64,000 nucleotides of DNA from a virus. The notes beneath the pieces are model-generated. The model was not told where the DNA came from and ran no database searches. It saw only the letters and a list, made by a program, of their open reading frames with translations. The position numbers and the translations under genes were made by a program. Numbering within the stretch: position 1 is the first letter of the stretch; each line of letters opens with the position of its first letter. Shown one piece after another: positions 32,772 through 63,616 of this stretch. Location: positions 32,001 through 96,000 of IMG/VR virus record IMGVR_UViG_3300045988_130750; one strand, written 5' to 3'.

Positions 32772-32906
32772 ATGAACAAATTTTTAATTGAAATTGAATG
32801 TGACGGAGATATTAATGTCGAAGGAATGGAAAATCTATTAAAAAATATGATGGATAATCAAGTTAATTGTACAGAAACGACAATTGTTGTGAGAGAAGAT
32901 GAGTAA
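32772..32906 (+). CDS. Hypothetical 44-aa protein (below the track cutoff)
   Basis: GGAAAGGATGGATATAAAAATG. Reads MNKFLIEIECDGDINVEGMENLLKNMMDNQVNCTETTIVVREDE*. Confidence 0.5.
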   Translation: MNKFLIEIECDGDINVEGMENLLKNMMDNQVNCTETTIVVREDE

Positions 32907-32938
32907 ATGTGTATTTCATTAGAATTGGAGGAACAGAT

Positions 32939-33118
32939 ATGGAATTTTCAGAAATGGATGAAGTAAGAGTAAGAACTTATGGTGGTGCTATTGGCACTAT
33001 TGAAAGGGTTATATATGAAATGGTAGATAGTAAGGAAACAGATAATGTATATTGCTATGAAATGGAAATCAATGGTAAACATGGAGTCATAGTCTATCCA
33101 GACGAGATTGACGAATAA
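32939..33118 (+). CDS. Hypothetical small protein
   Basis: ATG at 32939 after TTGGAGG; the track start at 32909 is a GTG inside the intergenic motif. Confidence 0.65.
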   Translation: MEFSEMDEVRVRTYGGAIGTIERVIYEMVDSKETDNVYCYEMEINGKHGVIVYPDEIDE

Positions 33119-33170
33119 AGCTGATTGTAGAATAGTAAATGCGTGTTTCATTAGAAGGTAGGTGAAGGAT

Positions 33171-33383
33171 ATGAAAGTAACAAAGAAATTAGAAGAATTG
33201 TTAGAAAAAGCATCTAAAAAACTTGATGCTGCACAAGATGCTAGAAGCGAAGTTATGGACTATCTTGAGGAGCATTATGGGATAGATACAAGAGAGGAAT
33301 ATGAAGAAATAGAAGATCAATGTACATGGTGCTATGGAATTGATAAAGATAGTGTAAGAAAATTGATTGAAAAGGCAAAATAA
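33171..33383 (+). CDS. Hypothetical small acidic protein
   Basis: ATG at 33171 after GGTAGGTGAAGG. Confidence 0.65.
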   Translation: MKVTKKLEELLEKASKKLDAAQDARSEVMDYLEEHYGIDTREEYEEIEDQCTWCYGIDKDSVRKLIEKAK

Positions 33384-33416
33384 ATTCGCATTTCTTTAGA
33401 AGATTGGAGAAATAAA

Positions 33417-33593
33417 ATGAAATTTAATAAAGACGACAGAGTATTTCATAGAGGATTAAAAAGATATGGAATATATGTAGATGATGATTGGGCTTCCGAT
33501 GATAGTTGTTATGTTAAGTTTGACAACGAGGATAATCCGGATGATGTATTGTGTGTATCGAAAAACTGGTTAGATAACGTAAAGGAGAAATAA
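33417..33593 (+). CDS. Hypothetical 58-aa protein (below the track cutoff; DRVFH paralogue of 42295-42525)
   Basis: TTGGAGAAATAAAATG. Reads MKFNKDDRVFHRGLKRYGIYVDDDWASDDSCYVKFDNEDNPDDVLCVSKNWLDNVKEK*. Confidence 0.6.
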   Translation: MKFNKDDRVFHRGLKRYGIYVDDDWASDDSCYVKFDNEDNPDDVLCVSKNWLDNVKEK

Positions 33594-33595
33594 AA

Positions 33596-33793
33596 ATGGG
33601 ATTAGAAGAGATTTTAAAAGAACTTGGAGCAGACATTCCCTTTGATGAGAAAGGAGATTTAACTTCAAATGGAGCTGACGCATATGAGAAGTTAATCAAT
33701 GTAGTAACAGGATTAAATAGTATTGGTGCTATTCAAGAGAAACCAGATGACATTGAAAGTTATTGTGATGAAATAGTGAGATTGGGATTCTAA
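33596..33793 (+). CDS. Hypothetical small protein
   Basis: 65-aa ORF with AAAGGAG SD. Confidence 0.7.
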   Translation: MGLEEILKELGADIPFDEKGDLTSNGADAYEKLINVVTGLNSIGAIQEKPDDIESYCDEIVRLGF

Positions 33794-33834
33794 TGAAACT
33801 AAGATTTCTTGGTATGATTGGAGGCAAAAAATCA

Positions 33835-34047
33835 ATGGAAAATAAACCTTATGCAATAGCAGTACGAATTTATGAATTAAATGGAACAACGATGGCAGAT
33901 ATTAAAACTTCTCCCTGTGATGGTTTGAGAACAGAAACGATAACATGGACAAAACCAGACGAAAGAGAAAGATTTTATTATAATGGTTATACGTTGATTT
34001 ATGATGAACGAATCAAAAATATAAAACCTTTTGAAGAAATTAAATAA
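33835..34047 (+). CDS. Hypothetical small protein
   Basis: ATG at 33835 after TTGGAGG; the track start is 33793. Confidence 0.65.
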   Translation: MENKPYAIAVRIYELNGTTMADIKTSPCDGLRTETITWTKPDERERFYYNGYTLIYDERIKNIKPFEEIK

Positions 34048-34060
34048 GGAGTGAAGCGAA

Positions 34061-34276
34061 ATGACAAACATTGAAAAGTCAAAAGAGGACGCACGGAACT
34101 TAAATGAACTCACGGATCATTTGATTAAATTACTTGAATCGGATGACAAGCGGTTCTCATTTGAATTTTGTGCAGGTGGCACAATGGAGATTTACGACAA
34201 AGAAAAAGAAATTGGGTATGCAGTTCATATTGTACCGATTGAATATGATGAGAACGGAAAAGCAATAAATTTATAA
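34061..34276 (+). CDS. Hypothetical small protein
   Basis: 71-aa ORF with AAGGAG SD. Confidence 0.7.
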   Translation: MTNIEKSKEDARNLNELTDHLIKLLESDDKRFSFEFCAGGTMEIYDKEKEIGYAVHIVPIEYDENGKAINL

Positions 34277-34286
34277 AGGAGACGAA

Positions 34287-34460
34287 ATGAATTACTTAGA
34301 GTATATTATCTATCATAATTGTGATAAAGGCAGAATCGTAGTACGACACACACAAAGATTTTTCACGAGTTATGAAGAAGCGAAAGCAAATGCAGAACAT
34401 TGGATAAAACAGAATTATCCGAATGAAGATGCAAACAATTTTGAAATATATGTTAAATAA
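34287..34460 (+). CDS. Hypothetical 57-aa protein (below the track cutoff)
   Basis: AAGGAGACGAAATG. Reads MNYLEYIIYHNCDKGRIVVRHTQRFFTSYEEAKANAEHWIKQNYPNEDANNFEIYVK*. Confidence 0.55.
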   Translation: MNYLEYIIYHNCDKGRIVVRHTQRFFTSYEEAKANAEHWIKQNYPNEDANNFEIYVK

Positions 34461-34466
34461 CGCAAA

Positions 34467-34505
34467 GGCAGTTAGGAGAATAAATACCTAGCTGCCTATT
34501 TTATT
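34467..34505 (+). terminator. Rho-independent terminator
   Basis: GGCAGTTAGG (34467-34476) pairs with CCTAGCTGCC (34487-34496), then TATTTTATT. Confidence 0.6.
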
Positions 34506-34520
34506 ACAAGAAAGTGAGGA

Positions 34521-34784
34521 ATGAACATGAAACAATTTGATTTACCTGTAGTAAATAATATACGAAAATCATTTTACGGAAAAGCGAAAGTAACAGAGTT
34601 AGACAATGGAGACATTGAGCTGACAAGCTACAATACAGTCGTTTGCAGAATACATAATGGAGTTTTTCAGAGATTGTGGAATGGGTATTCAGCAACGACA
34701 ATGAGACATATCAATGCTTTTATTGGCTTCTATGGAATTGAAGGTGGAGGCAAAGCATGGTGGAACAGTTTAGAGATTGAATAA
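34521..34784 (+). CDS. Hypothetical protein
   Basis: 87-aa ORF with GTGAGGAATGAACATG context. Confidence 0.7.
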   Translation: MNMKQFDLPVVNNIRKSFYGKAKVTELDNGDIELTSYNTVVCRIHNGVFQRLWNGYSATTMRHINAFIGFYGIEGGGKAWWNSLEIE

Positions 34785-34803
34785 ATTAAGGAGGAAACGA
34801 ATT

Positions 34804-35070
34804 ATGAGCAAATGGTTATATGATCCTGAAAAGGATTTACGGAATGGAAAAGAGTTTACTTATAACTTACCTATACATGAGAATGACACATTATTCAATG
34901 GTTTTACATATAGAGAAATCATGGATGTAATAGTTGCAAATTGTGGTCACAATGTCACAGAAGCACAATTTGATAAAGAGTTAAAGGATTTTCTTGATAT
35001 GCGAATTGAAGAGATGAAAGAAAATCTGATGTTGTGCAAGGCAAATATGTTAAAAGAGATTAGAAAGTAA
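34804..35070 (+). CDS. Hypothetical protein
   Basis: ATG at 34804 after TAAGGAGG. Confidence 0.7.
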   Translation: MSKWLYDPEKDLRNGKEFTYNLPIHENDTLFNGFTYREIMDVIVANCGHNVTEAQFDKELKDFLDMRIEEMKENLMLCKANMLKEIRK

Positions 35071-35083
35071 GGAGGAAATTATT

Positions 35084-35833
35084 ATGCGTAAGATTCTTAA
35101 CCCATGTAAATGTAAGGTATATACAAGATCGGGAAAAGAAGCAGATAAAAATGCATTTGTAAAAATTGAATACAATAATTCAAAGTTAAGTATTAGTGGT
35201 GTGGTTGCACCATTATCAAATGGAGATTGCCTTGGCTCTGCTGGTCAGTGCGTAGATGAAATCAGAAATGGAATTCCTACAGATGAATGGACAACAGAAA
35301 TGCTTAATAAATTATGTGATATTTGGGACAGATGGCACTTAAATGATATGCGTCCATATTGTCCACATATGGAGGAGCTTGGGTGGGTTAAACATACACA
35401 GGATAAAGTGAAAATTGAAAAATGGACACTTACAAGAGAAGCCTCTCAGAAAAAGAAAGAAGCTGAGAACAGAGCATTAGAGTGTCTGAGAAATGGAGAA
35501 CCATTTTATCTAACAAAAGATGAAATTGCATATGCAAATATGAAATATTCTATTGATATTTATAATGACGAAGACATAGAAAATAAATGTGGAAAGTTAT
35601 ATAAAGATGCGTATGAATTAAAAGAAAAAGATTGTTTAGGACACTCAAACACAGAATATAAAACAAGAGGTTGGATTTCATATAAAGATCATGAGTTAGG
35701 TTTTCTTAGTAGACCTTGCCCTGTATGTGGTTATAAATATGGAACTGCATGGAAAATGGAAGATGTACCTGATGAAATAATTAAATGGTTAGAAAGTTTA
35801 CCTGAAACAAAGGTAAAACCAGCTTGGGTATAA
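35084..35833 (+). CDS. Hypothetical protein with C-terminal zinc ribbon (CPVCGYKYG)
   Basis: 249-aa ORF with TAAGGAGG SD. Confidence 0.75.
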   Translation: MRKILNPCKCKVYTRSGKEADKNAFVKIEYNNSKLSISGVVAPLSNGDCLGSAGQCVDEIRNGIPTDEWTTEMLNKLCDIWDRWHLNDMRPYCPHMEELGWVKHTQDKVKIEKWTLTREASQKKKEAENRALECLRNGEPFYLTKDEIAYANMKYSIDIYNDEDIENKCGKLYKDAYELKEKDCLGHSNTEYKTRGWISYKDHELGFLSRPCPVCGYKYGTAWKMEDVPDEIIKWLESLPETKVKPAWV

Positions 35834-35847
35834 GGAGGTAAAACATT

Positions 35848-36033
35848 ATGTTGAAAATTGAAATTAAAACAGGTGGTGCAGCTTATAGTGATGATGATGT
35901 ACTTACATATGAAGGTAGATATGAGTTGAAGAGAAACTTAACAGATATTGCACAGTTAATTACAAATGGATGTGATAGTGGTTACATCATGGATATTAAC
36001 GGAAACAAAGTAGGTAACTGGTCGGTTGAATAA
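35848..36033 (+). CDS. Hypothetical small protein
   Basis: 61-aa ORF with TAAGGAGG SD. Confidence 0.7.
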   Translation: MLKIEIKTGGAAYSDDDVLTYEGRYELKRNLTDIAQLITNGCDSGYIMDINGNKVGNWSVE

Positions 36034-36077
36034 CCAAATGAAAGAGTACTTTCATAGAAAGGTAAAAGGTGATAATT

Positions 36078-36329
36078 ATGAAAAAATATGTAGTAATTTG
36101 TTATTCGGTTCACAATAAAGAAATTGCAAGCCATGATGCATTTGAAAATGAGGATGATGCATACGCATTTCTTGAAAAAGATGCACAGAATACTTACGAG
36201 GAAGAAATGAATAATTCTGACGAAGAAGGAAAAGAGCAGGTCGATTTTACAATAAGTGATGATGGTTCAGCATATCTTTCATCTCACGATGGAGAATATG
36301 AATGGACTTGGGAAGTTATAGAGGCATAA
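36078..36329 (+). CDS. Hypothetical acidic protein
   Basis: ATG at 36078 after AAAGGTGA. Confidence 0.65.
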   Translation: MKKYVVICYSVHNKEIASHDAFENEDDAYAFLEKDAQNTYEEEMNNSDEEGKEQVDFTISDDGSAYLSSHDGEYEWTWEVIEA

Positions 36330-36361
36330 AGAATTAGCAATTTCATTTTAAGATTGGAGGA

Positions 36362-37481: not shown

Positions 37482-37679
37482 ATGAAGTATAAAATAGGCG
37501 ATAAATTTATGATAGAAATGAGAACTGGTTTTCTACTAAATAGTTTCGTTAGAAGAGAAATTGAAATTACAAAAATAATTGGTAATCTCCTATGGTTCAA
37601 ATATGAGTTACCTAATGGTGGTTACAGGGAAATGTTTGGTTATGAAAAAGATTTAGATGGAATGATCATAACTGAATAA
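37482..37679 (+). CDS. Hypothetical small protein
   Basis: ATG at 37482 after TTGGAGTGA. Confidence 0.65.
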   Translation: MKYKIGDKFMIEMRTGFLLNSFVRREIEITKIIGNLLWFKYELPNGGYREMFGYEKDLDGMIITE

Positions 37680-37715
37680 ACAAGAGTTTCAAGGCAAGAT
37701 TGGAGGAAAATAAAT

Positions 37716-39892: not shown

Positions 39893-40108
39893 ATGAACCA
39901 GCTAAAACAAATCCGTTTGGAAAATAAATGGACTCAACAATATGTGGCAGATAAAATTAGTATTACAAAATCTGCATATTCAAACATTGAGAATCAGAAT
40001 AGAAGTCCATCACTAAAAGTAGCCATTCAATTACAAAATTTGTTTGGTCTATCAATTGAAAAACTGTTGGAAAATAAGAATAGCAACCCTACACCGACAA
40101 AAGTTTAG
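39893..40108 (+). CDS. Cro-like XRE-family HTH protein
   Basis: WTQQYVADKISITKSAYSNIENQNRSPSLKVAIQLQNLF. AAAGGAG SD. Confidence 0.75.
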   Translation: MNQLKQIRLENKWTQQYVADKISITKSAYSNIENQNRSPSLKVAIQLQNLFGLSIEKLLENKNSNPTPTKV

Positions 40109-41099: not shown

Positions 41100-41307
41100 G
41101 CAATACATATCATGAGTGCTGACAAGAAGCATTCAGCTTGTTCTATACTTCTCAAGTCAAAAGAAGTAGTGTATAATAATAAAGGTAGTCTAAAATCGAA
41201 AGAGATTAGATAGAGGTTGAGGTTTATAGCAAGTTACTTATGGTAACGAATGGAAAATAATTTCCAATGAATCCAAGTTTTCTTTTGAAACAGAAAGGAA
41301 TTATTTT

Positions 41308-41634: not shown

Positions 41635-41668
41635 GAAATCTAAGTTTCATGCCAAGAAGGGAGTAATA

Positions 41669-41881: not shown

Positions 41882-41918
41882 TAGTAGGTAGACAATATAA
41901 TAATTATGTTGGAAGTGA

Positions 41919-42260
41919 AATTTAACTTTCAAAGGTGATGATTTTATAAAAAAGACCGAAAAATTTGAAATTATTAGATGGTATATAAAACACAATATCA
42001 ATATTACAAAAACAATAGATATAAATTCTATAGATAGACTAAGAGAACTTGAAGAAATCGTCAGAACAAATAAAAATGTTTTTGGCGAAGTATCAAGATG
42101 TTATCAATGTACATCTGATGGAAAGAGTTTTTGTAATAGATGTGCAAATTGTGTAGAATGGCATTGGAATTCTGACATTCCTGATGATGAATGTGTAGAT
42201 AATTATAGATTTAGATATCAATATTGGAAAACATTTTATGATATTGAGAATGAGAAATAA
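41919..42260 (+). pseudogene. 113-codon open frame with no canonical start (ATA where paralogous contexts have ATG)
   Basis: My own translation gives NLTFKGDDFIKKTEKFEIIRWYIKHN...CYQCTSDGKSFCNRCANCVEWHW...ENEK*. The SD AAAGGTGATGA is followed by an in-frame ATA. Absent from the ORF track. Confidence 0.4.
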
Positions 42261-42294
42261 CTGGAAATTCGACTTTCAAAGGAAGGTGATATAA

Positions 42295-42741: not shown

Positions 42742-42822
42742 TAAATGACGATTTCAAATGGATTTTTTGGATTGATTAGTCATATAATATATTAGAAATT
42801 ATTGAAAAATGGAGGTAATTGT

Positions 42823-43262: not shown

Positions 43263-43550
43263 ATGAATATGGGAAATCCAAAAAGAGTGTCAAGATTTAT
43301 ATGTTGTAAACATTTAGGAGAGAATTATATAGGATCTGGCATACAGAGATATGGACATCAGAGAGAAAAATTTCATTGCAAGGATCTATTTTGTTTGCAA
43401 TGTAACGAAATTACAAAAAATTTAGAAATTCGATGGTGTGATGATTATTTGGAAGTATATGAAATGGCTCAACAAATTAGATCATGCTATTATACAGATA
43501 AAATGGAGAATAATAATGATAGAAAGGTGGTTGATGAACATGTGTTATAA
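43263..43550 (+). CDS. Hypothetical zinc-finger protein
   Basis: 95-aa ORF with TGAGGTGA SD. CCKH...HCKDLFCLQC...C. Confidence 0.65.
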   Translation: MNMGNPKRVSRFICCKHLGENYIGSGIQRYGHQREKFHCKDLFCLQCNEITKNLEIRWCDDYLEVYEMAQQIRSCYYTDKMENNNDRKVVDEHVL

Positions 43551-44553
43551 AGCAGAAGTTCAAAAGCGAAACGAAGAGAAGTTAAACAAAATGTTGAGAA
43601 ACGAGAATGTTCCTGATTTTATTCAAGATTATTTTTTATCTATTTCGAGCAGAGCAGCAAGAATAAATTATTGGACAACTATTCGTAACACATTGAATTG
43701 GTTAATTGAAAAGAAATATATTGAATGTAAATCAATATCTGATATTTCACCTGAAATATTAGATAAGGTAACGGATTCAAAAATTATTAGATATTTAGAT
43801 TATTTAAAGGAGACTGGAATTAAACTTAGTACATTAGTCACAAAGAAAAACCAGTTGAGTAGTTTCTGGCAGTGGATGAAAGATCGTCATTATTGCAAGG
43901 ACAATATAATACAGTTAATCAAATCAAATGAATATAAAGCAGTAAAGACAAATCGTATGAAAATGCAGAAAATGCCTTTGTATGAAGATATCCAGGAGAT
44001 GATTGAAAAAATAAACCATAAACCAGATGAGTTCATTAGAATTAGAAATATGTGTGTCCTTAGAGTTTTGCGTGGTACTGGTTTAAGAGAGTCAGAGTTA
44101 GCAAATCTTGATTTAGGGGATATATATTTAGATGAAAAATTTATAGATGCATATCATGTAAGACCGTATTCGCTTGTAACAAGTAAAGGAACTTATGATT
44201 ATTCAGATGAAGCTAAAGATATTGTTTATTTAACAAAAGATGCAATTTCAGCTTTAACCGAATGGATTGAATACAGAAATACACTTGATTTTATTATTGA
44301 CAAAGATGCATTATTTCTTAATAAAAATGGAAAGCGTATGAATGAAGATAACATCAAAGCAATGTTTAGAATCTACAGTGGTGGGAAATTAACACCGCAC
44401 ATGATGAGACACGAATATACAACAGTTCTTCAAAGAGAATCAAACGATCCTACATTTGTTAGAGAACAAGGCAGATGGAAGTCAAACGCAATGATGAATA
44501 ATGTGTATGATTCAGGAGCTAGTAGATCCGCAAGTGTTTTGGAGAATATGTAA
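43516..44553 (+). CDS. Tyrosine recombinase (XerC/D-integrase family)
   Basis: ATG at 43516 after TGGAG. ...LRGTGLRESEL... and TPHMMRHEYTT...GRWKSNAMMNNVY supply the R, H-x-x-R and Y. Confidence 0.8.
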   Translation: MIERWLMNMCYKAEVQKRNEEKLNKMLRNENVPDFIQDYFLSISSRAARINYWTTIRNTLNWLIEKKYIECKSISDISPEILDKVTDSKIIRYLDYLKETGIKLSTLVTKKNQLSSFWQWMKDRHYCKDNIIQLIKSNEYKAVKTNRMKMQKMPLYEDIQEMIEKINHKPDEFIRIRNMCVLRVLRGTGLRESELANLDLGDIYLDEKFIDAYHVRPYSLVTSKGTYDYSDEAKDIVYLTKDAISALTEWIEYRNTLDFIIDKDALFLNKNGKRMNEDNIKAMFRIYSGGKLTPHMMRHEYTTVLQRESNDPTFVREQGRWKSNAMMNNVYDSGASRSASVLENM

Positions 44554-44904: not shown

Positions 44905-45285
44905 ATGGATTTACAGAGATACGACATAATAAAGGCAAAAATTAATTATGAAGGAAATTCAGTACAAACGAATGAAAGACCTTATGTAATAGTAAGTAAT
45001 CCATTGGGTACAAAATATGCTCCGATTATAACAGTGATGCCTTTGACAAGTAAGATTAAAAAGACAAACATGCCTTGTCATGGATGTATTCAAGCAAATG
45101 AAAATAATGGATTAACATTATATTCTATGGCATTAGGTGAGCAGATCACAACAATCTCAAAAGATGAAGTGATCTCAAAAATTGGAACTATTACTGATGA
45201 TAAAAATAAAAGAATGGTAGATAAAGTATGTTTTAATTCTTTATTTTTTGGAACAGACTACAAGCTTGAGGAGGTAATGGCATAA
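44905..45285 (+). CDS. MazF/PemK-family endoribonuclease toxin
   Basis: YDIIKAKINYEGNSVQTNERPYVIVSNPLGTKYAPIITVMPLTSKIKK matches the PemK pattern (G..RP.v.vS....v.v.PlTs). Confidence 0.75.
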   Translation: MDLQRYDIIKAKINYEGNSVQTNERPYVIVSNPLGTKYAPIITVMPLTSKIKKTNMPCHGCIQANENNGLTLYSMALGEQITTISKDEVISKIGTITDDKNKRMVDKVCFNSLFFGTDYKLEEVMA

Positions 45286-45833: not shown

Positions 45834-45887
45834 AGAACGTATGTACGAAAAAAAGTAATTGACAAATACGAACATATGTTCTATATT
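45834..45887 (+). promoter_or_regulatory. LexA-boxed sigma-A promoter
   Basis: AGAACGTATGTACG at 45834-45847. TTGACA at 45859-45864. A perfect CGAACATATGTTCT at 45869-45882 fills the spacer. TATATT at 45882-45887. Confidence 0.7.
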
Positions 45888-46095: not shown

Positions 46096-46167
46096 AGGAC
46101 TATCGCCAAGCGGTAAGGCACAGGACTTTGACTCCTGCATTCGCTGGTTCGAATCCAGCTAGTCCTG
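46096..46167 (+). tRNA. tRNA-Gln: tRNA-Gln (anticodon UUG)
   Basis: Acceptor AGGACTA/TAGTCCT, anticodon arm CAGGA-CTTTGAC-TCCTG, T arm CTGG-TTCGAAT-CCAG. Confidence 0.9.
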
Positions 46168-46204: not shown

Positions 46205-46822
46205 GTGATAATATTGGCACAATATGTTATTACAGATGGTTCTCGTTGGATTATGAAAGATAAAAATGGGAAATTTGTTCCCACATCTTGCGAACCGCTG
46301 GCTGATGTATTTGGTAATAAGGAAGTTAATTCGGTGTATCAAAACAATTTGCCGAAGGCATTGAAATCGGTCTTTCATATCGAGAAGATTGATAAGCCTC
46401 CAAAGTTGGTAAAGCAAATTACACATGCGGAAGTACAAGAGAATACAGAAACGGTGTCGGTTGCAGAAAATATCCAATATTGGGTAGATAAGGTATCTGG
46501 TTTGAATGGACTTGCTGCTGAAGCATTACATAGAAAAGAAGAATTGATTAATCAGTTAAGTGAAGTTGATAAGGAACTTTGCGATATTAATCATTACATA
46601 GAATTTTGCAACTTAAATGCAGCTCAGGGTTATAAAGCATACAAAATGATCAAGGATCGGAGAATAAAGAGACGAAGTATTAAAAATGAGTTGGATGTTC
46701 TTAGTATTATTCTTGGAAAGAAAATATCTGAATCTGTCAGTGATGAATTACAAAAGATGATTAACGGATTAGATGGAAGAAAATATGAGCCAAGAGTAAT
46801 GAATGAGTTATTCGATTTCTAA
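46205..46822 (+). CDS. Hypothetical coiled-coil protein
   Basis: 205-aa ORF with AAGAGGAG SD. The start is either GTG 46205 or TTG 46214. Confidence 0.7.
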   Translation: MIILAQYVITDGSRWIMKDKNGKFVPTSCEPLADVFGNKEVNSVYQNNLPKALKSVFHIEKIDKPPKLVKQITHAEVQENTETVSVAENIQYWVDKVSGLNGLAAEALHRKEELINQLSEVDKELCDINHYIEFCNLNAAQGYKAYKMIKDRRIKRRSIKNELDVLSIILGKKISESVSDELQKMINGLDGRKYEPRVMNELFDF

Positions 46823-49125: not shown

Positions 49126-49249
49126 CAGAGAATAATTAAGTAAGAAACAGAAATTAGAAATCATCTTAGGACAATCCTCCGATTACATATGTCACTTCTG
49201 ACAATTCTTAAATGTTATTTTTGAAAGTATAATTTCTGTTTATATATAA

Positions 49250-50976: not shown

Positions 50977-51029
50977 AAATAGCAATCTAATCTTTCTTTT
51001 GGTTATAGAAACAATAAGAAAGGATAAAA

Positions 51030-51182: not shown

Positions 51183-51229
51183 AACAAGAAATGTGGTTTT
51201 CAAGTGAAGTGAAGTTTGGAGGTGAAATC

Positions 51230-51592: not shown

Positions 51593-51635
51593 AAACGAGA
51601 AAAGAAATTTCTCTTTCAAATGGAGGTAAAATGTA

Positions 51636-51836: not shown

Positions 51837-51877
51837 TTATTAATGTAGGAAGAAAATTCGGATTCAAATGGAGGTAA

Positions 51878-52162: not shown

Positions 52163-52207
52163 CAGGAAGAAATTCACGTTTCATAGGAAATTTTGGAGGT
52201 TAAGACA

Positions 52208-53236
52208 ATGACAATTGAGCAAATTAAGGACAAATTAAAATCAAAAGAGTATGACTTCCTGAGAACAGATAAGAATTTGGGTGACAATATCATTATCTTA
52301 ACTCTTGGTGGAAGTCATGCATATGGAACTAATAATGAGGGTAGTGACTTAGATATTCGTGGTTGTGCTTTAAATAGCAAGATGCAAATTCTTACAAACG
52401 AGAATTTTGAGCAGTTTGTAAATAATGAAACAGACACGACTATTTATGCATTTAATAAGTTAGTTGCTTTATTAAGCAATACAAATCCTAACACAATTGA
52501 GATGCTTGGAAATAAGCCAGAACATTATTTCTATGTATCTCCTATTGGTCAGGAACTTATTGACAATGCACATTTATTCTTATCAAAAAGAGCTTGTCAT
52601 TCATTTGGTGGATATGCGAATCAGCAGCTCTATAGATTGAATCAGAAAGCAGCACATCAGATGTCTCAGTCAGAATTGGAGAAACACATTTTAAAGACGC
52701 TTGAATTTATGCAGACAGATTTTACAAAGAAATACACACCATATTCAGATGATTCAATGAAGTTATATATTGATAAGGCTGTACAGGAAGGATATGACAC
52801 AGAGATTTTTATGGATGTGAACCTTACTCATTATCCATTGAGAGATTATTGCTCTATGTGGAATGAACTTCAGAACACAGTTCGTCAGTATGGAAAGATT
52901 GGTAAAAGAAATGAGAAAGCTATTGAGCATGGTAAGATTGCAAAACATTCAATGCATCTCATTCGACTTTATATGATGTGCTTAGATATTCTTGAAAAAG
53001 AGAGAATAATCACATATAGAGAAGATGAACATGATTTGCTTATGGATATTCGTAATGGTAAATATCTCGACAGCAACGATCAGCCAATTCCTGAGTTCTT
53101 TGAAATGGTAAATGACTATGAGAAGAGATTGGATTATGCAAAGAAAAATACTAATCTTCCTGACAATCCAGACTACAAGAAAATCAATGAGTTTGTTGCA
53201 AGTGTAAACGAAAGGGTGGTTAAGGGTGAAATCTAA
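52208..53236 (+). CDS. RlaP-like (Pol-beta superfamily) nucleotidyltransferase
   Basis: ATG at 52208 after TTGGAGG. ILTLGGSHAYGTNNEGSDLDIRGCAL is the GS-x-AYG...SDxDxRG signature of the predicted nucleotidyltransferase family linked to RNA repair. Confidence 0.65.
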   Translation: MTIEQIKDKLKSKEYDFLRTDKNLGDNIIILTLGGSHAYGTNNEGSDLDIRGCALNSKMQILTNENFEQFVNNETDTTIYAFNKLVALLSNTNPNTIEMLGNKPEHYFYVSPIGQELIDNAHLFLSKRACHSFGGYANQQLYRLNQKAAHQMSQSELEKHILKTLEFMQTDFTKKYTPYSDDSMKLYIDKAVQEGYDTEIFMDVNLTHYPLRDYCSMWNELQNTVRQYGKIGKRNEKAIEHGKIAKHSMHLIRLYMMCLDILEKERIITYREDEHDLLMDIRNGKYLDSNDQPIPEFFEMVNDYEKRLDYAKKNTNLPDNPDYKKINEFVASVNERVVKGEI

Positions 53237-54602
53237 ATTAAAAATTAAAATCCCATCTGGTGCAAATGAGATTATTCATACACTCCAAGATAAAGGATAT
53301 GAAGCATATTTAGTTGGTGGATGTGTTCGTGATAGCATTCTGAAAAGACCAATTCACGATTATGATATTACAACATCTGCTACACCTGATGAGATGATGG
53401 AAGTATTCAAAGGTAAAAGAATTATTGAAACTGGCTTACAGCATGGAACAATAACAATTGTCATTGATGGCGAACCATACGAGGTAACAACTTACAGAAT
53501 TGATGGTAATTATTCTGACAATCGCAGACCAGACAAAGTAACATTTACACGAAGCCTTGAAGAAGATTTAAAGCGTAGAGATTTTACAATCAATGCAATG
53601 GCATACAATGATGAAGTTGGTCTTGTAGATCCGTTTAATGGCATGGAAGATATTAAATACCACAAGATTAGATGTGTTGGCAGAGCAGAAGACAGATTTT
53701 CAGAAGATGCATTAAGAATTTTACGTGCTATTCGATTTGCCTCACAGTTGGGATTTGTCCTTGAACCTGATACAGATTGGAATATCTCTAAAATGTATAA
53801 GAATTTGGAGAATATATCTATTGAAAGGATCAATAGTGAGTTCTGTAAAATTGCTGCATCGAGTGATTTCTGTGTACAAATGGTCTTATATCACGAAGTA
53901 TTCTCATTGTTCATTCCTGAAATTAAAGATATGTTTGGCTTTCAACAGAATAATCCATATCACATGTATGATGTATGGAATCATACAGTACATGCAGTAC
54001 AAGCTTATGAATGTGATTGTGAACCCGACTTGAACCCAAGAGATTTGATTACATCATTGGCTGTATTTTTTCATGATATTGGAAAGCCACATTGTTATCA
54101 AGATGGCGAGGATGGTATTAGACATTTCAAAGGTCACGGAAGAGTAAGTGCTGATATGACTGATACAATTATGAAAAGACTTCGTTTTGATAATGATACA
54201 AGAGAAAAAGTAGTGCAGCTTGTTTATTATTATGATGCAACTTTTGAGGTAGGAAAGAAATATGTCAAGAGATGGCTTAGTAAAATTGGAGAAGAACAGT
54301 TCAGAAGGTTATTAGATGTTCGTAGAGCTGATATTAAAGCACAAGCAGACATTAATCAGGAAACAAGATTACAGAAGATTGATAATATCGAATACATTTT
54401 AGAAGAAGTCTTACAAGATGATGAATGTTTTTCTCTAAAGGATTTAGCAGTTAATGGTAAGGATTTAATTACTATTGGATATAAGCCAGGAAAAGAAATT
54501 GGTGAGGTATTAAATAATCTGTTGGATTCAATCATTAGTGGAGAATATATAAATGAGAAAGAAAAATTATTAGAAATAGCAAAGAGGAGATTATATGGTT
54601 AA
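53226..54602 (+). CDS. cca: CCA-adding tRNA nucleotidyltransferase with HD domain
   Basis: YLVGGCVRDSILKRPIHDYDITT, RDFTINAMAY, EDALRILRAIRFASQLGF and the HD motif FFHDIGKP. The start overlaps the upstream stop. Confidence 0.85.
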   Translation: MKSKLKIKIPSGANEIIHTLQDKGYEAYLVGGCVRDSILKRPIHDYDITTSATPDEMMEVFKGKRIIETGLQHGTITIVIDGEPYEVTTYRIDGNYSDNRRPDKVTFTRSLEEDLKRRDFTINAMAYNDEVGLVDPFNGMEDIKYHKIRCVGRAEDRFSEDALRILRAIRFASQLGFVLEPDTDWNISKMYKNLENISIERINSEFCKIAASSDFCVQMVLYHEVFSLFIPEIKDMFGFQQNNPYHMYDVWNHTVHAVQAYECDCEPDLNPRDLITSLAVFFHDIGKPHCYQDGEDGIRHFKGHGRVSADMTDTIMKRLRFDNDTREKVVQLVYYYDATFEVGKKYVKRWLSKIGEEQFRRLLDVRRADIKAQADINQETRLQKIDNIEYILEEVLQDDECFSLKDLAVNGKDLITIGYKPGKEIGEVLNNLLDSIISGEYINEKEKLLEIAKRRLYG

Positions 54603-55512
54603 ATTATTCACACACACAGATCTTGATGGTATAGGTTGTGCAGTTTTGGCAAAACTTGCATTTGGTAAAGATGTAGATATTTCATACTGTGATTATGATA
54701 ACATTGATTCAAATGTCAGGGACTTTATTGATAGTGAAACAGAATTTGATATGTGTATTATTACAGATATCAGAGTAAATGAAGATACAGCGAAAATTAT
54801 TGATGACAGATTTGATAATTTCTATTTATTAGATCACCGTCCAATAGCTCTAGGACTTGATAAGTATCTTTGGTGTTCTGTGACTATCGAGTATGAAGAT
54901 AAGGAGCTTGGAGTTATTAAAACCAGTGGAACAGAAATGTTTTATTATTGGTTAATCGAGAATGGTTATTTGAAAGATTCAGATATATTAAGAAGATTTG
55001 CTGAACTTGTGAGAGATTATGACACTTGGAGATGGTCAGAACTTGGTGAAGATGGTGTTATTTGTAAGCAGGTGAACGATTTACTATATCTGTATGGTCG
55101 AGACGATTTTATTCATTGGTGCGTTACCGAGATACGTGGTGAAATATTCCCATTATTATCTGCTAAAGATGAGGTTGTTCTAAAGATTAAGCAGGATGAA
55201 ATTGATAAATATATCGAAGAGAAGAACGAAACTATGTTTACCAGTCCTATGTGTGGTAAGGTTTGTGGTTTTGTATTTGCAGATAGGTTTGTTAGTGAAT
55301 TAGGTAATAGACTTTGTAAAATGCATCCTGAAATTGATTTTGTGGCAATGATTGATATTGATGGTTGTACGGTATCTTATAGAACAGTTAAAGAAGATAT
55401 TGATCTTGGTAAAGACGTAGCAAGTTTATTTGGTGGTGGTCATCCAAAAGCTGCTGGTTCAGAATTTAGTCAGAGTATTAAGTTGAAAGTTATTGAGGAA
55501 ATCTTTAAATAG
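54595..55512 (+). CDS. DHH/DHHA1-family phosphoesterase (NrnA/RecJ-like)
   Basis: LFTHTDLDGIGCAV, LLDHRP (DHH position) and SLFGGGHPKAAGS (DHHA1 GGGH). Overlaps the cca stop. Confidence 0.75.
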   Translation: MVKLFTHTDLDGIGCAVLAKLAFGKDVDISYCDYDNIDSNVRDFIDSETEFDMCIITDIRVNEDTAKIIDDRFDNFYLLDHRPIALGLDKYLWCSVTIEYEDKELGVIKTSGTEMFYYWLIENGYLKDSDILRRFAELVRDYDTWRWSELGEDGVICKQVNDLLYLYGRDDFIHWCVTEIRGEIFPLLSAKDEVVLKIKQDEIDKYIEEKNETMFTSPMCGKVCGFVFADRFVSELGNRLCKMHPEIDFVAMIDIDGCTVSYRTVKEDIDLGKDVASLFGGGHPKAAGSEFSQSIKLKVIEEIFK

Positions 55513-56779: not shown

Positions 56780-57010
56780 AAGTAATTCTATTCACGGCTG
56801 ATCAGCCAAATTTTCCAAATAAAAGTAACAAGAAATATTTTTTTCATTATTCTCTGTCAAAATACACTATTTTGCAGAGGTTACGTAACCATAATTACCT
56901 AGGAGTTACTGCTTAATTCCTTTCTTCTTAATACTATTTTGTTGTAAAATCACTCGAAAATAGACACGTCTGCCTAATCGAATGAAAAAAATAATTCTCA
57001 AGGGCTACGA

Positions 57011-57892: not shown

Positions 57893-57945
57893 CATAATAT
57901 GAAGTTCCATTGAAAGTGGAATTTCTTGTGGAGAAAGGAGAGAAT

Positions 57946-59487: not shown

Positions 59488-59679
59488 ATGGGATTAATTG
59501 AAAAATATGAAAAAAGAAAACTAAGATATGAGAAGCAACTTTCTCAAATGTCAGATGATAGTGAACTATCAGAGTATGGATTTTGGGATAAAGGGTATCT
59601 GCGTGGGAAAATTGCAATATGTGATGACATTATAGACGATTTGAATAATATCTTAATTAAGTACAATAAAAAGCAATAG
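59488..59679 (+). CDS. Hypothetical small protein
   Basis: 63-aa ORF with TTGGAGG SD. Confidence 0.7.
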   Translation: MGLIEKYEKRKLRYEKQLSQMSDDSELSEYGFWDKGYLRGKIAICDDIIDDLNNILIKYNKKQ

Positions 59680-59702
59680 TGTCAAATTTAAAGGAGAATA
59701 AT

Positions 59703-59963: not shown

Positions 59964-59968
59964 ATCAT

Positions 59969-60238: not shown

Positions 60239-60239
60239 T

Positions 60240-60368
60240 ATGATAGATAACAAATTACGTCAGCAATATAGACAGGCTGCTGTCATTTTAAGAATAGAAT
60301 TTAAGGAAACTTGTTTGTACAGATTGTGCGAAGAAGTTGTGAAGAAGTTGAGTGAGATTTTGAATTGA
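60240..60368 (+). CDS. Hypothetical 42-aa protein
   Basis: ATG at 60240, directly after the lipoprotein stop. It is the tail of track ORF 60180-60368. Confidence 0.45.
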   Translation: MIDNKLRQQYRQAAVILRIEFKETCLYRLCEEVVKKLSEILN

Positions 60369-60382
60369 TAAAGGAGAATAGT

Positions 60383-60709
60383 ATGGCAGATTATAAGATT
60401 GGTCAGATTTTGACATCAACAGAAGAAGTAGAAATTGAAAAAGCATTATCAGGAGAAAGGGTAAAAATTCCAAAGGGTAATAAAGTAATCATTGGTGCAG
60501 ATAAATTGGCACATCATATCAGAAATGGTTTTATTCAGCCATTGGCAGAAGGTTTAATAGTAGAAGGATATGATACTGCTGGCATTGCAGAATATCTTTA
60601 TATTGTACTTAGAAATCATTTACCTATTGATGAAATGATGGAAGGATATGAAATCACCAAGCAGGAAGTTATTGATGAAATTGAATGTGCTTTAGATGAA
60701 ATTTTCTAG
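60383..60709 (+). CDS. Hypothetical protein
   Basis: ATG at 60383 after AAAGGAGA. Confidence 0.7.
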   Translation: MADYKIGQILTSTEEVEIEKALSGERVKIPKGNKVIIGADKLAHHIRNGFIQPLAEGLIVEGYDTAGIAEYLYIVLRNHLPIDEMMEGYEITKQEVIDEIECALDEIF

Positions 60710-60752
60710 TTAACAGCAAACCGAATTTTCTTGGTGATTTAGGAGGTGAAAG

Positions 60753-61061
60753 ATGAGTAAAAACTATGAATTAGAGTTATATAAATTACTAATCAATCCA
60801 GAAGAAGACGATATTGACATCTCATATGTAGATGAATTCGGATGGGTTAATGATACAGAATTTTGTGTTTGGATTAATCTTAGTTGGTTTAATGAATTTA
60901 TCAAACGATTGAATGATATTTTCGGTTATTCATTATTTGATGAAGGTGGAATTGAAGCAAGAATTGGTAGTGATTATGTCTGTATCGACTTAGAAGAAGT
61001 TATTTCTGGATACGGTATTGATCTTGAAGAGGTATTTCCAAGAAGTAAATACACACATTAA
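60753..61061 (+). CDS. Hypothetical acidic protein
   Basis: 102-aa ORF with TAGGAGGTGA SD. Confidence 0.7.
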   Translation: MSKNYELELYKLLINPEEDDIDISYVDEFGWVNDTEFCVWINLSWFNEFIKRLNDIFGYSLFDEGGIEARIGSDYVCIDLEEVISGYGIDLEEVFPRSKYTH

Positions 61062-61112
61062 GAGAATAATACATTGAAAGAAATCTTTCATTTGATGGCA
61101 GGAGGTGAACGA

Positions 61113-61328
61113 ATGGGTAAAATTAGTAAACAGACATTTATTGTAGAAGTTGCAACTGATAAAGATTCTTTTGAAGATTGGTTAGCAGAGAAGTGTTCAG
61201 AAATATACAATATGGCAATTGATGATTTTGTAGAAGCTATTGATGAAGAAGATAGAGACGAATATTTGGTTGACGATATGAGAAGAATCGAAGAATTAGC
61301 AGAAAAAGTCAAAGGAAGTAGAGAATAA
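61113..61328 (+). CDS. Hypothetical acidic protein
   Basis: ATG at 61113 after CAGGAGGTGA. Confidence 0.65.
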   Translation: MGKISKQTFIVEVATDKDSFEDWLAEKCSEIYNMAIDDFVEAIDEEDRDEYLVDDMRRIEELAEKVKGSRE

Positions 61329-61389
61329 TTAACTGAATAATACGAAAGGAGTGAGTGGCAGCCTTAAAGAAATTTCGCTCTGAGTAGTA

Positions 61390-62004
61390 ATGAAAACAGA
61401 TGAATATTTAAGATCATATATCAGAAAATATTTTTATCAACATTTAGATATTTGCAAATGTGATATATGTGGAAGTACGCATGATTTACAAGTACATCAT
61501 TCTGATATTCAATTTTTTGAGATGGTTGATAAGACTATGCAAGATCTAAATTTGAAATACTATTCTGATATTGAATTCTATTCAGACAATGAAAAGGATT
61601 TAATTATTACATACATTTTAGGATTACATATGAGAAGTAGATATCAGATATTATGCAAATCATGTCATACTAAAATACATCAGCAGGATGTCAAACGAAG
61701 AAAACAAATACTATCTAATATGCCAGAAATTATCAATTTTATACTTTTGCATAAAGACACAAGGTTATTTCAGGATGGAAAAATCGAATTGTTTAAATTG
61801 ATTAAACATGATTATTCGTCAATAAGGTATGTAAGTACAAATGAAATCAATATGTTTTTTGAAAAATATGATATTCCATTTAGATTATATGATAGAGACG
61901 ATAATGGAAAGAGATATATTGATAAAAGAAGAAGGTTGCCAAACGGAGAAATTAATAATAACAGGGATAAAGCATATTGGATATTGAAAAATATTATCCA
62001 ATGA
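61390..62004 (+). CDS. HNH endonuclease
   Basis: CDICGSTHDLQVHHSD...CKSCHTKIH is an HNH/zinc-finger pattern. Confidence 0.75.
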   Translation: MKTDEYLRSYIRKYFYQHLDICKCDICGSTHDLQVHHSDIQFFEMVDKTMQDLNLKYYSDIEFYSDNEKDLIITYILGLHMRSRYQILCKSCHTKIHQQDVKRRKQILSNMPEIINFILLHKDTRLFQDGKIELFKLIKHDYSSIRYVSTNEINMFFEKYDIPFRLYDRDDNGKRYIDKRRRLPNGEINNNRDKAYWILKNIIQ

Positions 62005-62041
62005 AACTCGCATTTCATCACTTGGAAAGGAGAATAATACT

Positions 62042-62770
62042 ATGAGTTTAACACATAGAGAAGAAGTAAATCTTTACGAAGCAATTCAGAAATCATTTCC
62101 TAAAATCCTCATTAAAGATTTAGCAGAACACGAAAGAATTTGCCCTGTCTGTAATGGTCTTGGAATGAGAATTGAAGACAATGTTTATGGTATTAAGGGT
62201 GATGATTCTGAAGCTGGCAGAAAATATCATTTCCCATATAAGCATCAAGCACTTTCATTCTGTCGGAGCTGTTTCAATGGTGTACAGAGATTATGTCCTT
62301 ATTGTGGACAACCATATAAGAATCAGTCATATATGCATTGCGACTGCGAAGGACAGAAGAAAGCTGATGAAGAAGAGAAAATAAAGAAATGGAACGAAAA
62401 GGTTTCTAAAGCAGTTCCAGTTGAAGAAAAAGATGTGGACACAATGCTTTACTGTGAGGAATTTGATGAGTATTACGATACTGTTGATGATTTCTTTGAC
62501 GATTACGCAGTGAATTATTTGGACGAAGAAGTATATACAAAACCTGAGAGATTATGGGTATGCAGTGTAGAAAATATTCATATTGATGCTGATAATGTAG
62601 TTGACAATGCTTGCGAAGAGTTACATGAAGACGCTTATGAACAGTGTGATATTGGTGGTCTGCAAAATTTGTTAGATATCTGGTGTAAAGATCAGACGGG
62701 AGCTACTACATATTATCCATGTTATAAGCAGTATGTTTTGATTGATTGGGATGAGTTTGAAGGAGAATAA
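62042..62770 (+). CDS. Hypothetical multi-CxxC zinc-binding protein
   Basis: 242-aa ORF with AAAGGAGA SD. CPVCNGLG, CRSCFNG, CPYCG. Confidence 0.7.
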   Translation: MSLTHREEVNLYEAIQKSFPKILIKDLAEHERICPVCNGLGMRIEDNVYGIKGDDSEAGRKYHFPYKHQALSFCRSCFNGVQRLCPYCGQPYKNQSYMHCDCEGQKKADEEEKIKKWNEKVSKAVPVEEKDVDTMLYCEEFDEYYDTVDDFFDDYAVNYLDEEVYTKPERLWVCSVENIHIDADNVVDNACEELHEDAYEQCDIGGLQNLLDIWCKDQTGATTYYPCYKQYVLIDWDEFEGE

Positions 62771-62774
62771 TACC

Positions 62775-63098
62775 ATGAAGAAACAAAGAAAACCAAAATG
62801 TGGTTATCAAATTGATAAATGCCCTATCTGTAAAGCAAAAACATTTGAGTATTGTTCTTATTCTGAATTCGGATGGGGAACAGTAGAACAGCATGGAAGT
62901 TGCAGTAGGTGTGGTTTTATAGTTGAACAAGCATACTCATCAACATTTTGTTGTTTTTGGGATATTGAGAAAGGATTCAAACATCCAAACGGAACATATT
63001 ATGCTAAAAATGTTAAAAAGCATAAAAGAATAAGAAGAAAACTTGGTATCAAAAATACGGATTATGAGATTAACCCAGAGTGGCTTAACTACATTTAA
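62775..63098 (+). CDS. Hypothetical zinc-ribbon protein
   Basis: ATG at 62775 after AAGGAGA. CPICKAK...CSRCG. Confidence 0.65.
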   Translation: MKKQRKPKCGYQIDKCPICKAKTFEYCSYSEFGWGTVEQHGSCSRCGFIVEQAYSSTFCCFWDIEKGFKHPNGTYYAKNVKKHKRIRRKLGIKNTDYEINPEWLNYI

Positions 63099-63188
63099 AG
63101 GATAACAAGAAACCTGTCTTTCTTTGGTTCGTAACAGAGAATTAATAAATAATAAAGTGATTTCTTTGGTTTTGTAGGAGGTGATTTG

Positions 63189-63521
63189 ATGTCGAAGATA
63201 AATTATCGTGTATGTGATATTTGTGGAAATAGAATTCCTGGTTTTGAATTTGATATTACAGGGATTGCCAAAAGATATATTAATGGCTGTCGAATTTGGA
63301 ATAAACTATTTAACAGATTGGATATCTGTGATGATTGCATTGATAAAATCAAGCGATTGTCCATAGATAAGAAAGATGAAGAGAAATACATAAAAGAAAT
63401 TTTTGATAAAGCAAAAGATTATGATAATCCAAATTTAAAGTCTGCTTATTATCAAGGTATTGAAGATACACTAAATGTTTTGAGTCATAAGAGATTAAAG
63501 AATTTGCCAAAACTAAGATGA
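63189..63521 (+). CDS. Hypothetical zinc-ribbon protein
   Basis: ATG at 63189 after TAGGAGGTGA. CDICGN...CDDC. Confidence 0.65.
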   Translation: MSKINYRVCDICGNRIPGFEFDITGIAKRYINGCRIWNKLFNRLDICDDCIDKIKRLSIDKKDEEKYIKEIFDKAKDYDNPNLKSAYYQGIEDTLNVLSHKRLKNLPKLR

Positions 63522-63616
63522 AATTTTGGTTTCTTTGGTTGTCACGAAAACTATACAATATTCGGGACAAGCTAAGTAAAACCACGTTTCCTTTGGTTGT
63601 GAAAGTAGGTGAGAAT

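Follow-up and report, generated by a model that had tools for sequence, protein, structure and literature searches.

The 64,000-nt stretch analyzed here (the window; positions 32,001 to 96,000 of the virus record IMGVR_UViG_3300045988_130750 in IMG/VR) consists of two divergent arms, a leftward one spanning 1 to 24 kb and a rightward one (~26 to 64 kb) made up of long strings of small genes. Noncoding spacers of the rightward arm carry a repeated 14-nt dyad, GAAA-N6-TTTC, often wedged between the stop codon of one gene and the Shine-Dalgarno (SD) sequence of the next, which is the subject of this work. The leftward arm contains the gene for a YonO-like single-chain RNA polymerase (RNAP; 13532 to 16141), and the arm layout parallels that of Bacillus phage SPbeta. 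The rightward arm codes for Cro/CI-type helix-turn-helix (HTH) proteins, HicA, MazF, a BRO/ORF6C antirepressor, a GmrSD-N protein, an RlaP/CCA-adding enzyme/DHH cluster, and a tyrosine recombinase (gene calls are heuristic). Promoter and terminator scans of the window placed strong sigma-A-type promoters at 24.8 to 25.3 kb, 39820, 44792/44820, and 45859 and revealed few terminator-like hairpins, indicating that most dyad copies lie inside operons. No close DNA relative of the window was found among GenBank phages, which returned tRNA matches and distant protein matches only. Hundreds of relatives occur among human-gut contigs of 90 to 195 kb in IMG/VR, and more distant ones in contigs and chromosomes that are mostly assigned to Lachnospiraceae and other Clostridia, including a complete [Clostridium] asparagiforme chromosome. 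The presence of relatives in bacterial chromosomes indicates that the phage is temperate. Related loci are not independent of each other, and many derive from one IMG/VR dataset.

The dyad had been noticed in an earlier note on this DNA, and its excess is real: the window contains 22 GAAA-N6-TTTC matches versus 4.23 ± 1.97 in shuffled sequences (maximum, 12). Nineteen of the 22 map to the rightward arm, where spacings other than N6 are rare (N4, 2; N5, 1; N7, 0; N8, 2), and 16 of these 19 fall in the 18.6% of bases that are noncoding (binomial P = 1e-9). The preference is conserved in relatives, with 585 N6 matches versus 89 to 196 at other spacings in 157 IMG/VR loci, and 224 versus 20 to 71 in 43 further loci plus positions 25001 to 46000 of the window. 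Candidate dyad-bearing prophages also occur in Lactonifactor sp. BIOML-A5 (L208; 5 GAAA-N6-TTTC copies in 21 kb) and Lachnospiraceae bacterium MD308 (L183; 3 exact copies and 9 by a relaxed pattern). Copies from the window and its relatives follow the consensus A(-2) N [G/T]AA[A/T] N6 TTTC N T(16) N N G(19), and the information content of the dyad is ~16 bits. In the window and the 157 loci, the core tolerates a T at positions 1 and 4 and no other change, the right half TTTC being strict; each tolerated variant precedes an SD in ~47 to 49% of cases, compared with 50% for the perfect core and 0 to 22%, i.e., background, for every other single change. The C of TTTC is 14 to 30 nt from the start codon, with a peak at 20 to 26 nt. 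The ~27 copies of the rightward arm, all in one orientation and in noncoding spacers, split it into ordered "slots". They are listed below, followed by two copies on the minus strand.

32904-32917 (+), dyad site, TAAA-TGTGTA-TTTC; TAA is the upstream stop codon; SD downstream
33136-33149 (+), dyad site, center TGCGTG; type common to 27 related loci
33381-33394 (+), dyad site, center TTCGCA; shared type
33795-33808 (+), dyad site, center CTAAGA; shared type
36040-36053 (+), dyad site, center GAGTAC; extended palindrome ATGAAAG-AGTA-CTTTCAT
36331-36344 (+), dyad site, GAAT variant, center TAGCAA; shared type
37677-37690 (+), dyad site, TAAA variant, center CAAGAG; shared type
41269-41282 (+), dyad site, GAAT variant, center CCAAGT; shared type; absent from the earlier list
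41635-41648 (+), dyad site, center TCTAAG; absent from the earlier list
41917-41930 (+), dyad site, center TTTAAC; shared type
42264-42277 (+), dyad site, center TTCGAC
42742-42755 (+), dyad site, TAAA variant, center TGACGA; shared type; last before the recombinase gene
49223-49236 (+), dyad site, GAAA-GTATAA-TTTC; tRNA gene 13 nt downstream; TATAAT inside; no SD after it
50983-50996 (+), probable degenerate site, CAAT-CTAATC-TTTC; spacer before gene 51030
51188-51201 (+), dyad site, center TGTGGT
51604-51617 (+), dyad site, center TTTCTC; shared type
51852-51865 (+), degenerate site, GAAA-ATTCGG-ATTC, before an SD
52169-52182 (+), dyad site, center TTCACG; before the RlaP gene
56832-56845 (+), dyad match, center TATTTT; in a conserved noncoding stretch; type found in 68 loci; not followed by an SD
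57912-57925 (+), dyad site, center GTGGAA; one base off the common type GCGGAA
59460-59473 (+), dyad site, center CATAGA; same type in 63 to 64 related loci with many different flanks
60717-60730 (+), dyad site, CAAA variant, center CCGAAT; one base off type CCGAAG
61076-61089 (+), dyad site, center GAAATC; shared type
62003-62016 (+), dyad site, center CTCGCA; shared type
63109-63122 (+), dyad site, center CCTGTC; shared type; CAGAGAATTA and an AT-rich, -10-like segment downstream
63520-63533 (+), dyad site, center TTTTGG; shared type; 43-nt slot to the next site
63577-63590 (+), dyad site, TAAA variant, center ACCACG; shared type
13281-13294 (-), dyad, reading GAAATCAGCCTTTC on the minus strand, then CAGAGAATAA
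4767-4780 (-), dyad flanked by two tRNA genes of the minus strand; orientation agrees with T16 and G19

The 13281 copy, downstream of the YonO-like RNAP gene and upstream of a tRNA, is the only intergenic leftward-arm dyad to precede the late genes. All 13 perfect copies and all 7 TAAA/CAAA variants listed in the earlier note are present as written there, as are the longer palindromes at 36038, 61075, 59458, and 63107. That list was incomplete, missing the canonical copy at 41635, the GAAT variant at 41269, and probably 50983, besides copies that do not adjoin an SD (49223, 56832, and, in the minus arm, 4767 and 13281). Its two tandem pairs with TTTCYTTTGGTT also exist, except that the 63161 member is a right half only (TTTCTTTGG) and not a dyad. 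Three matches were discarded as dyad sites: 43160, which belongs to a terminator hairpin, and 46363 and 62220, which are coding and probably due to chance. Motif-string searches of the literature yielded no paper on the dyad.

Comparison with relatives unveiled a new finding: the N6 centers are position-specific, conserved, and collinear, and they border exchangeable cassettes. Every center differs within the window; across relatives, the same centers recur, amounting to ~31 types (defined by exact centers and checked by a one-mismatch census and a gene-anchored test) with the following shared order.

CAGATA > TGGATA > TGCGTG > TTCGCA > CTAAGA > TTGTAA > GAGAAC > GAACTG > TAGCAA > CAAGAG > CGATGA > CGGAAA > TAATAG > CCAAGT > TTTAAC > TGACGA > ...
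... TGGTAG > ATTCTC > GTTCGA > ACTTCG > TGAGAT > CGCACA > GCGGAA > CATAGA > CCGAAG > GAAATC > CTCGCA > CCTGTC > TTTTGG > ACCACG > GAAGCA

In the 143 loci with at least two typed sites, 2,854 ordered pairs were concordant and 9 discordant, and a center type was never repeated within a locus. Typed copies were almost invariably forward (784, versus 3 reverse). Distances between neighboring types vary widely (e.g., 186 to 6,939 nt from GCGGAA to CATAGA), and the DNA between neighboring sites is exchanged for unrelated genes, forming up to 13 to 15 clusters sharing <15% of their 12-mers. For each type, flank identity falls to random (30 to 40%) within ~10 nt upstream and 10 to 20 nt downstream. 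One and the same 14-mer adjoins various gene ends or promoter-like sequences upstream and various genes downstream, combined in many ways, and empty slots keep both sites. At 63520 to 63590, two dyads 43 nt apart enclose only the promoter-like CGAAAACTATACAAT, which follows a single dyad in the related loci L122 to L125 and L146; this arrangement can be read as an empty slot or as a promoter flanked by a site on each side.

The conservation of the centers contrasts with that of their surroundings. One-mismatch variants of the 31 types represent ~8% of instances, i.e., ~1.4% per base. This census and a test anchored on the RlaP gene replaced pairwise flank matching, in which repeated promoter-like flanks mix slots. 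Across 40 loci with CGCACA at the RlaP slot, third-codon identity of the adjacent gene was 0.83 and identity at positions 15 to 18 was 0.54, so that centers are far better conserved than third-codon positions (17% change). Positions 15 to 18 appear as discrete multibase haplotypes (TTGC, CTAT, TTCG, TTGT, TTTG, and others) that recur at other slots, and bases 15, 17, 18, and -1 (e.g., window 52183 to 52186) are nearly randomized even between relatives that scarcely differ elsewhere. This scrambling could stem from local exchange, repair scars, or diversifying selection. Loci with 97 to 100% identical RlaP proteins have CGCACA at the slot or no site (five loci lack one), and when the same RlaP allele is accompanied by another center, the change is a whole-type replacement rather than a point variant (TTCACG in the window, ACTTCG in L090, and GTTCGA in L106). 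Recurrent centers are also richer in GC than the loci that contain them (45% versus 33%). Conserved centers amid scrambled flanks imply that centers are either under slot-specific constraint or continually homogenized, and that the arm edges are places of repeated sequence exchange.

The earlier note had reasoned that half-site sequence and position, and not pairing potential alone, matter, which would point to a sequence-specific dimeric site. This reasoning stands, as the arms mirror each other out to A(-2)/T(16), and this symmetry extends to the variation at the free positions -1 (A/T/G) and +15 (T/A/C). Furthermore, a divergent relative, L180 (positions 455 to 18712 of the Aminipila sp. 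metagenome-assembled genome contig DAMCXN010000009.1), contains 20 copies of a variant TAAA-N8-TTTA, mostly TAAAA-N6-TTTTA, in which both halves are altered together; most of these abut the SD directly. A strictly translational operator is made less likely by the copies that precede tRNA genes (49223 and 4767) and by emptied slots that keep a site without an SD or a gene. In some relatives, two sites are 19 to 43 nt apart with no gene in between. A purely translational role is therefore unlikely, and the dyad looks most like a site on double-stranded DNA where a sequence-specific protein would bind in two copies.

Our preferred reading, held tentatively and as possible rather than probable, is that the dyads are core sites of a tyrosine recombinase, mutually heterospecific through their centers, which would enable like-with-like cassette exchange. 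The array itself contains a candidate enzyme.

43516-44553 (+), Xer-like tyrosine recombinase gene, inside the array; candidate site-binding enzyme

The best Protein Data Bank matches of its product are XerA, XerC-like, XerH, and XerD proteins, and the catalytic R, K, HxxR, H/W, and Y residues are conserved among alleles of 40 to 81% identity. A 40%-identical homolog adjoins the RlaP gene of L180, whose dyad is altered. The product has no significant similarity to MrpR/YopR or YopP of SPbeta (YopR, E = 0.12), and a search beside the gene for a dif-like site with long arms found nothing convincing. As we envisage the mechanism, this catalytically intact protein would bind the arms, and strand exchange would need identical 6-bp centers. 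With that requirement, the only partner of a site should be its same-numbered counterpart in a relative sharing the cell, be it a second prophage or a co-infecting phage. A pair of such exchanges would replace a single cassette while keeping gene order, and the differing centers within one genome would prevent deletions between neighboring sites. Sites would lie between a stop codon and an SD simply because a tightly packed operon has no other noncoding room. The geometry of the dyads is that of a core site, with inverted arms, a strict N6, mirroring to -2/+16, and an asymmetric center; together with the uniform orientation, the sharp homology breaks at the arms, and a center that is conserved per position but differs between positions, it matches a set of core sites whose strand exchange would require identical crossover regions.

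Several observations weigh against this reading. Conservation covers ~6 bp per arm, of which 5 bases are specified, and G19 in addition on one side, which is at the low end of known sites; arms are 11 to 13 bp in Xer, Cre, and FLP sites, typically 9 to 13 bp in core sites, and 7 bp in lambda core-type sites. On the right side, T16 has a mirror counterpart and G19 does not. Recombinase alleles that are only 40% identical co-occur with identical arms, and close homologs of the recombinase turned up in a subset of the contigs only. The leftward arm encodes a second tyrosine integrase (phrog_1; 6237 to 7262, minus strand), which makes two tyrosine recombinases in 64 kb, either of which could be the plain prophage integrase. 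A role in expression is hinted at by the narrow range of distances to the SD, which holds even in L180, where site and SD are contiguous, and the centers could have been conserved to tune the affinity of an operator instead. Finally, mosaic breakpoints are equally common at gene borders without a site (e.g., 53235, 55512, 58668, and 59691). The idea that breakpoints are specific to dyad sites was accordingly rejected, and the site is not needed for mosaicism.

The closest described system is that of Acinetobacter pdif sites, which are 11-6-11 Xer sites with diverse 6-bp spacers; recombination has been shown only between identical or nearly identical spacers, and module exchange via cointegrates has been proposed (PMC13141974). 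Both systems place many copies on one replicon, with inverted arms around 6-bp spacers that differ from each other, flanking discrete accessory modules that vary between related replicons (PMC13141974, PMC6449649). Nonetheless, pdif arms are 11 bp with distinct XerC and XerD halves, whereas those of the dyad are ~6 bp and mirrored; pdif orientation alternates (C/D modules), in contrast to the 784:3 bias observed here; pdif relies on host XerCD, whereas the phage has its own Xer-like gene; and the order of pdif modules is shuffled, whereas the slot order is fixed. The dyads also differ in lying between stop codons and SDs of prophage operons, and their recombination is putative. The dif sites of single-recombinase systems (XerH/difH and XerS/difSL; PMC5357621) have comparable inner arms (...ATGAAAA and TTTTC...), several dyad copies reading ATGAAA-N6-TTTCAT, and the recombinase of the window matches XerA, XerH, and XerD in sequence. 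However, dif is present as one site per chromosome, with 10- to 11-bp arms and FtsK control, and serves dimer resolution, as opposed to ~30 short-arm sites here. Integron attC sites, imperfect palindromes of 55 to 140 bp with R''/L''-L'/R' boxes that move along with their cassette, were rejected as a model, since the dyad site is 18 to 24 bp without a GTTRRRY core, and its types stay with the slot and not with the cassette. Taken as a whole, the proposal of a Lachnospiraceae prophage family with phage-encoded cassette exchange, in which ~30 heterospecific sites with shared arms and one Xer-like recombinase would mediate like-for-like swaps of single cassettes between co-resident relatives, preserving order and avoiding within-genome deletions, is doubtful; it would be a natural counterpart of recombinase-mediated cassette exchange with lox/FRT spacer variants.

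The main rival, which we regard as rather unlikely, is a stoperator-like array of repressor sites. A dimeric phage DNA-binding protein would occupy all sites in the lysogen or late in infection, blocking elongating host RNAP in the rightward operons, as well as initiation at promoter-overlapping sites, to silence the accessory/early arm. A 4-N6-4 dyad is a classic HTH-dimer footprint, and several HTH proteins are encoded in the arm, three of them at 28500 to 28811, 28865 to 29155, and 39893 to 40108. The phage is temperate, with relatives in Lachnospiraceae chromosomes, and the sites are confined to one arm, with 20 to 30 copies located in short intergenic spacers within operons and oriented one way, as in cluster A mycobacteriophages (PMC6550527). 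The stoperators of that cluster (L5 gp71, Bxb1; PMC6550527, PMC9283540) likewise occur as dozens of short intergenic copies in a temperate phage, with one orientation relative to transcription and a lineage-drifting consensus; the lineage-specific half-site change in L180 fits this behavior. Stoperators are, however, 13-bp asymmetric sites bound by a monomer in both arms and have no free center or position-specific core, whereas the dyad is symmetric around an N6 center and restricted to one arm. Stoperator sites also recur at the early lytic promoter, whereas no dyad copy occurs in the 24- to 26-kb divergent promoter (switch) region, the expected place of CI/Cro-type operators. Overlap of some sites with promoter-like elements argues for repression, as 49223 holds TATAAT, 63520 and 13281 precede -10-like hexamers by ~17 nt, and relatives carry promoters resembling those with the SPbeta repeated element (SPBRE) directly upstream of sites. 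Repression leaves unexplained the homology break exactly at the arms and the conservation of centers above the synonymous level with GC enrichment, for which slot-by-slot affinity tuning would be needed; SPbeta, in turn, has no such dyad.

SPBRE and its regulator MrpR (YopR) of SPbeta (PMC10516654) invite comparison. SPbeta also combines an arm with a YonO-type RNAP and a divergent arm of small genes, and it has a repeated intergenic element, whose binding protein there adopts a tyrosine-recombinase fold. SPBRE, as derived here from SPbeta, is nevertheless distinct from the dyad: it is ~15 bp, embedded in ~10 promoters (AGACAAATACAAAWAATATGTATATAAT region), and unrelated in sequence, and SPbeta lacks an excess of GAAA-N6-TTTC (9 versus 4 to 10). 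MrpR has lost catalysis, whereas the recombinase of the window keeps all catalytic residues. In the related loci L078 to L121 and L001 to L037, the sequence upstream of CGCACA, GCGGAA, and CATAGA sites contains promoter-like sequences, such as caACAAATACtatatatTGTATAaaaat, that resemble the SPBRE promoter of SPbeta, AGACAAATACAAAtAATATGTATATAAT. SPBRE-like promoters and dyads coexist in relatives; the window itself gave no significant match to such a promoter.

A 5′ leader element acting at the RNA level is improbable. Such an element on early-arm mRNAs would either bind a repressor or activator of translation or, immediately before the SD, be cut by a processing endonuclease, in the manner of T4 RegA/RegB; one variant of the idea has UUUC toggling between the upstream GAAA and the SD. 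The dyad is indeed always on the sense strand, 14 to 30 nt before the start codon, and is present in leaders that follow a gene or a promoter alike. UUUC pairs with GGAG/GGAA of the SD in some minimum-energy folds, the G-C to A-U change in L180 would keep pairing, and the RNases MazF and HicA are encoded in the arm. Nonetheless, the RNA hairpin, RNA-processing signal, and hairpin-type promoter put forward in the earlier note found no support in pairing, covariation, or folding. Tolerated variants break pairing (U.C and U.U mismatches), whereas A-to-G changes in the left half that preserve G-U wobble pairs are not tolerated. Outside the 4-bp arms, complementarity is in slight excess at -1/+15 only (0.40 versus 0.33), with no excess at positions -3 to -6; pairs inside the N6 center are less complementary than expected by chance, and the center is nonpalindromic. 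Of 10 sites folded, 3 form the dyad hairpin in their minimum-energy structure, and 8 fold no better than shuffled sequences (z-scores of -0.15 to -1.35). Tests for membership in structured RNAs thus revealed neither compensatory or wobble maintenance nor a stable fold, and an Rfam search of the window returned 8 tRNAs and no family for the dyad. Copies before tRNA genes and in SD-less empty slots also count against an RNA element, which would leave the slot-specific centers unexplained.

It is hard to sustain that the sites are passive linkers, i.e., arms with a minor or lost function at which homologous or microhomology recombinants are made and selected in shared intercassette sequence without a dedicated enzyme. 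Breakpoints do cluster at site-free gene borders too, apparent deletions link SD-like GGAGAA to the microhomologous AGAGAATAA of gene ends, and the outer hexamers of the right arm (TTGCGG, CTATGG, and others) reassort among slots. On the other hand, 14 to 16 bp of identity is below the efficient range of known phage or host homologous recombination, and arms that are invariant at 8 to 10 positions over >30 slots and ~190 loci, and mirrored in a divergent lineage, imply direct selection for a binding function. T4-type promoter-early stem-loops (PeSLs; PMC2839356, PMC4122927), for which recombination of this kind has been proposed, are comparable to the dyads as short conserved repeats at borders of open reading frames (ORFs) in plastic regions where ORFs are inserted, deleted, or replaced. 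They consist, however, of a sigma-70 promoter and stable terminator hairpins and recombine with each other by homology, giving mini-circles, whereas the dyad has neither a sigma-A promoter nor a stable hairpin, and neighboring dyads share at most 4 to 5 contiguous bases. As for the microhomologies, [ACT]AGAGAATAA is enriched in the window (44 matches with one mismatch allowed, versus 19 expected), often as the last codons and stop of right-arm genes or after a dyad (e.g., 57883, 61060, 61319, 49126, 63135, and, on the minus strand, 13258). In the relative L019, an emptied slot looks as if the DNA from an SD-like GGAGAA to the AGAGAATAA at a gene end had been deleted. A fixed-distance coupling of AGAGAATAA to the dyad was rejected, as distances vary; AGAGAATAA may be a second boundary element.

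The least credible alternative is a promoter for the YonO-like RNAP (13532 to 16141), or for host RNAP with a phage factor, that would start near G19 and give each cassette or tRNA its own short-leader transcript: the asymmetric right-side extension toward the gene (T16, G19), the occurrence before protein and tRNA genes alike, the leftward-arm site 13281 downstream of the RNAP gene, where the SPbeta YonO promoter maps (PMC5467207), and an information content sufficient for ~30 sites speak for it, but SPbeta YonO transcribes the late operon only and SPbeta lacks the dyad, mirror symmetry around a free 6-bp center is unusual for a promoter, sites occur back to back, the slot-specific centers would go unexplained, and the hairpin (A/T-rich 4-bp stem, 6-nt loop, no stem extension) is too weak for the N4 type (5- to 7-bp stem, 3-nt loop). 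The promoter scan detected no sigma-A promoter at dyad sites, the strong consensus promoters lying elsewhere.

Phage mosaicism is usually ascribed to rare illegitimate joins filtered by selection, whereas this family has explicit, ordered, addressable junctions. If these are recombinase targets, they would represent a dedicated mechanism of accessory-gene exchange in temperate phages of abundant gut Firmicutes and a natural set of ~30 orthogonal sites for one enzyme, useful for genome engineering. If they are operators, they would be the first case of stoperator-like silencing outside mycobacteriophages, with the position-specific centers still to be explained. Either way, the array provides a coordinate system to compare hundreds of otherwise unalignable phage regions.

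Other features of the window deserve mention. The dyad match at 56832 is AT-rich and lies in a 230-nt noncoding stretch (56780 to 57010) that is conserved in >60 relatives and at which ends of BLAST segments pile up; the stretch has no ORF and no Rfam match and could be a promoter region or an uncharacterized RNA. The cluster at 52208 to 55512 is RNA-repair-like, coding for RlaP, a CCA-adding tRNA nucleotidyltransferase with an HD domain, and a DHH phosphoesterase, and it is accompanied by homologs of the MazF and HicA toxins (44905 to 45285 and 32253 to 32453) and by 8 phage tRNA genes, a combination that points to an arms race of tRNA damage and repair. On the minus strand, 11644 to 12753 encodes a 369-amino-acid protein matching the PHROG "transposase" family phrog_506 (E = 1e-138), possibly of the IS605/TnpB type; its gene closely follows the YonO-like RNAP gene, the 13281 dyad, and a tRNA. 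Finally, the perfect sigma-A-type promoter at 45859 to 45887 (TTGACAAATACGAACATATGTTCTATATT) contains GAAC-ATAT-GTTC, the Cheo (LexA) box pattern of Firmicutes, suggesting SOS control of this promoter ahead of the tRNA at 46096 and the gene at 46214.

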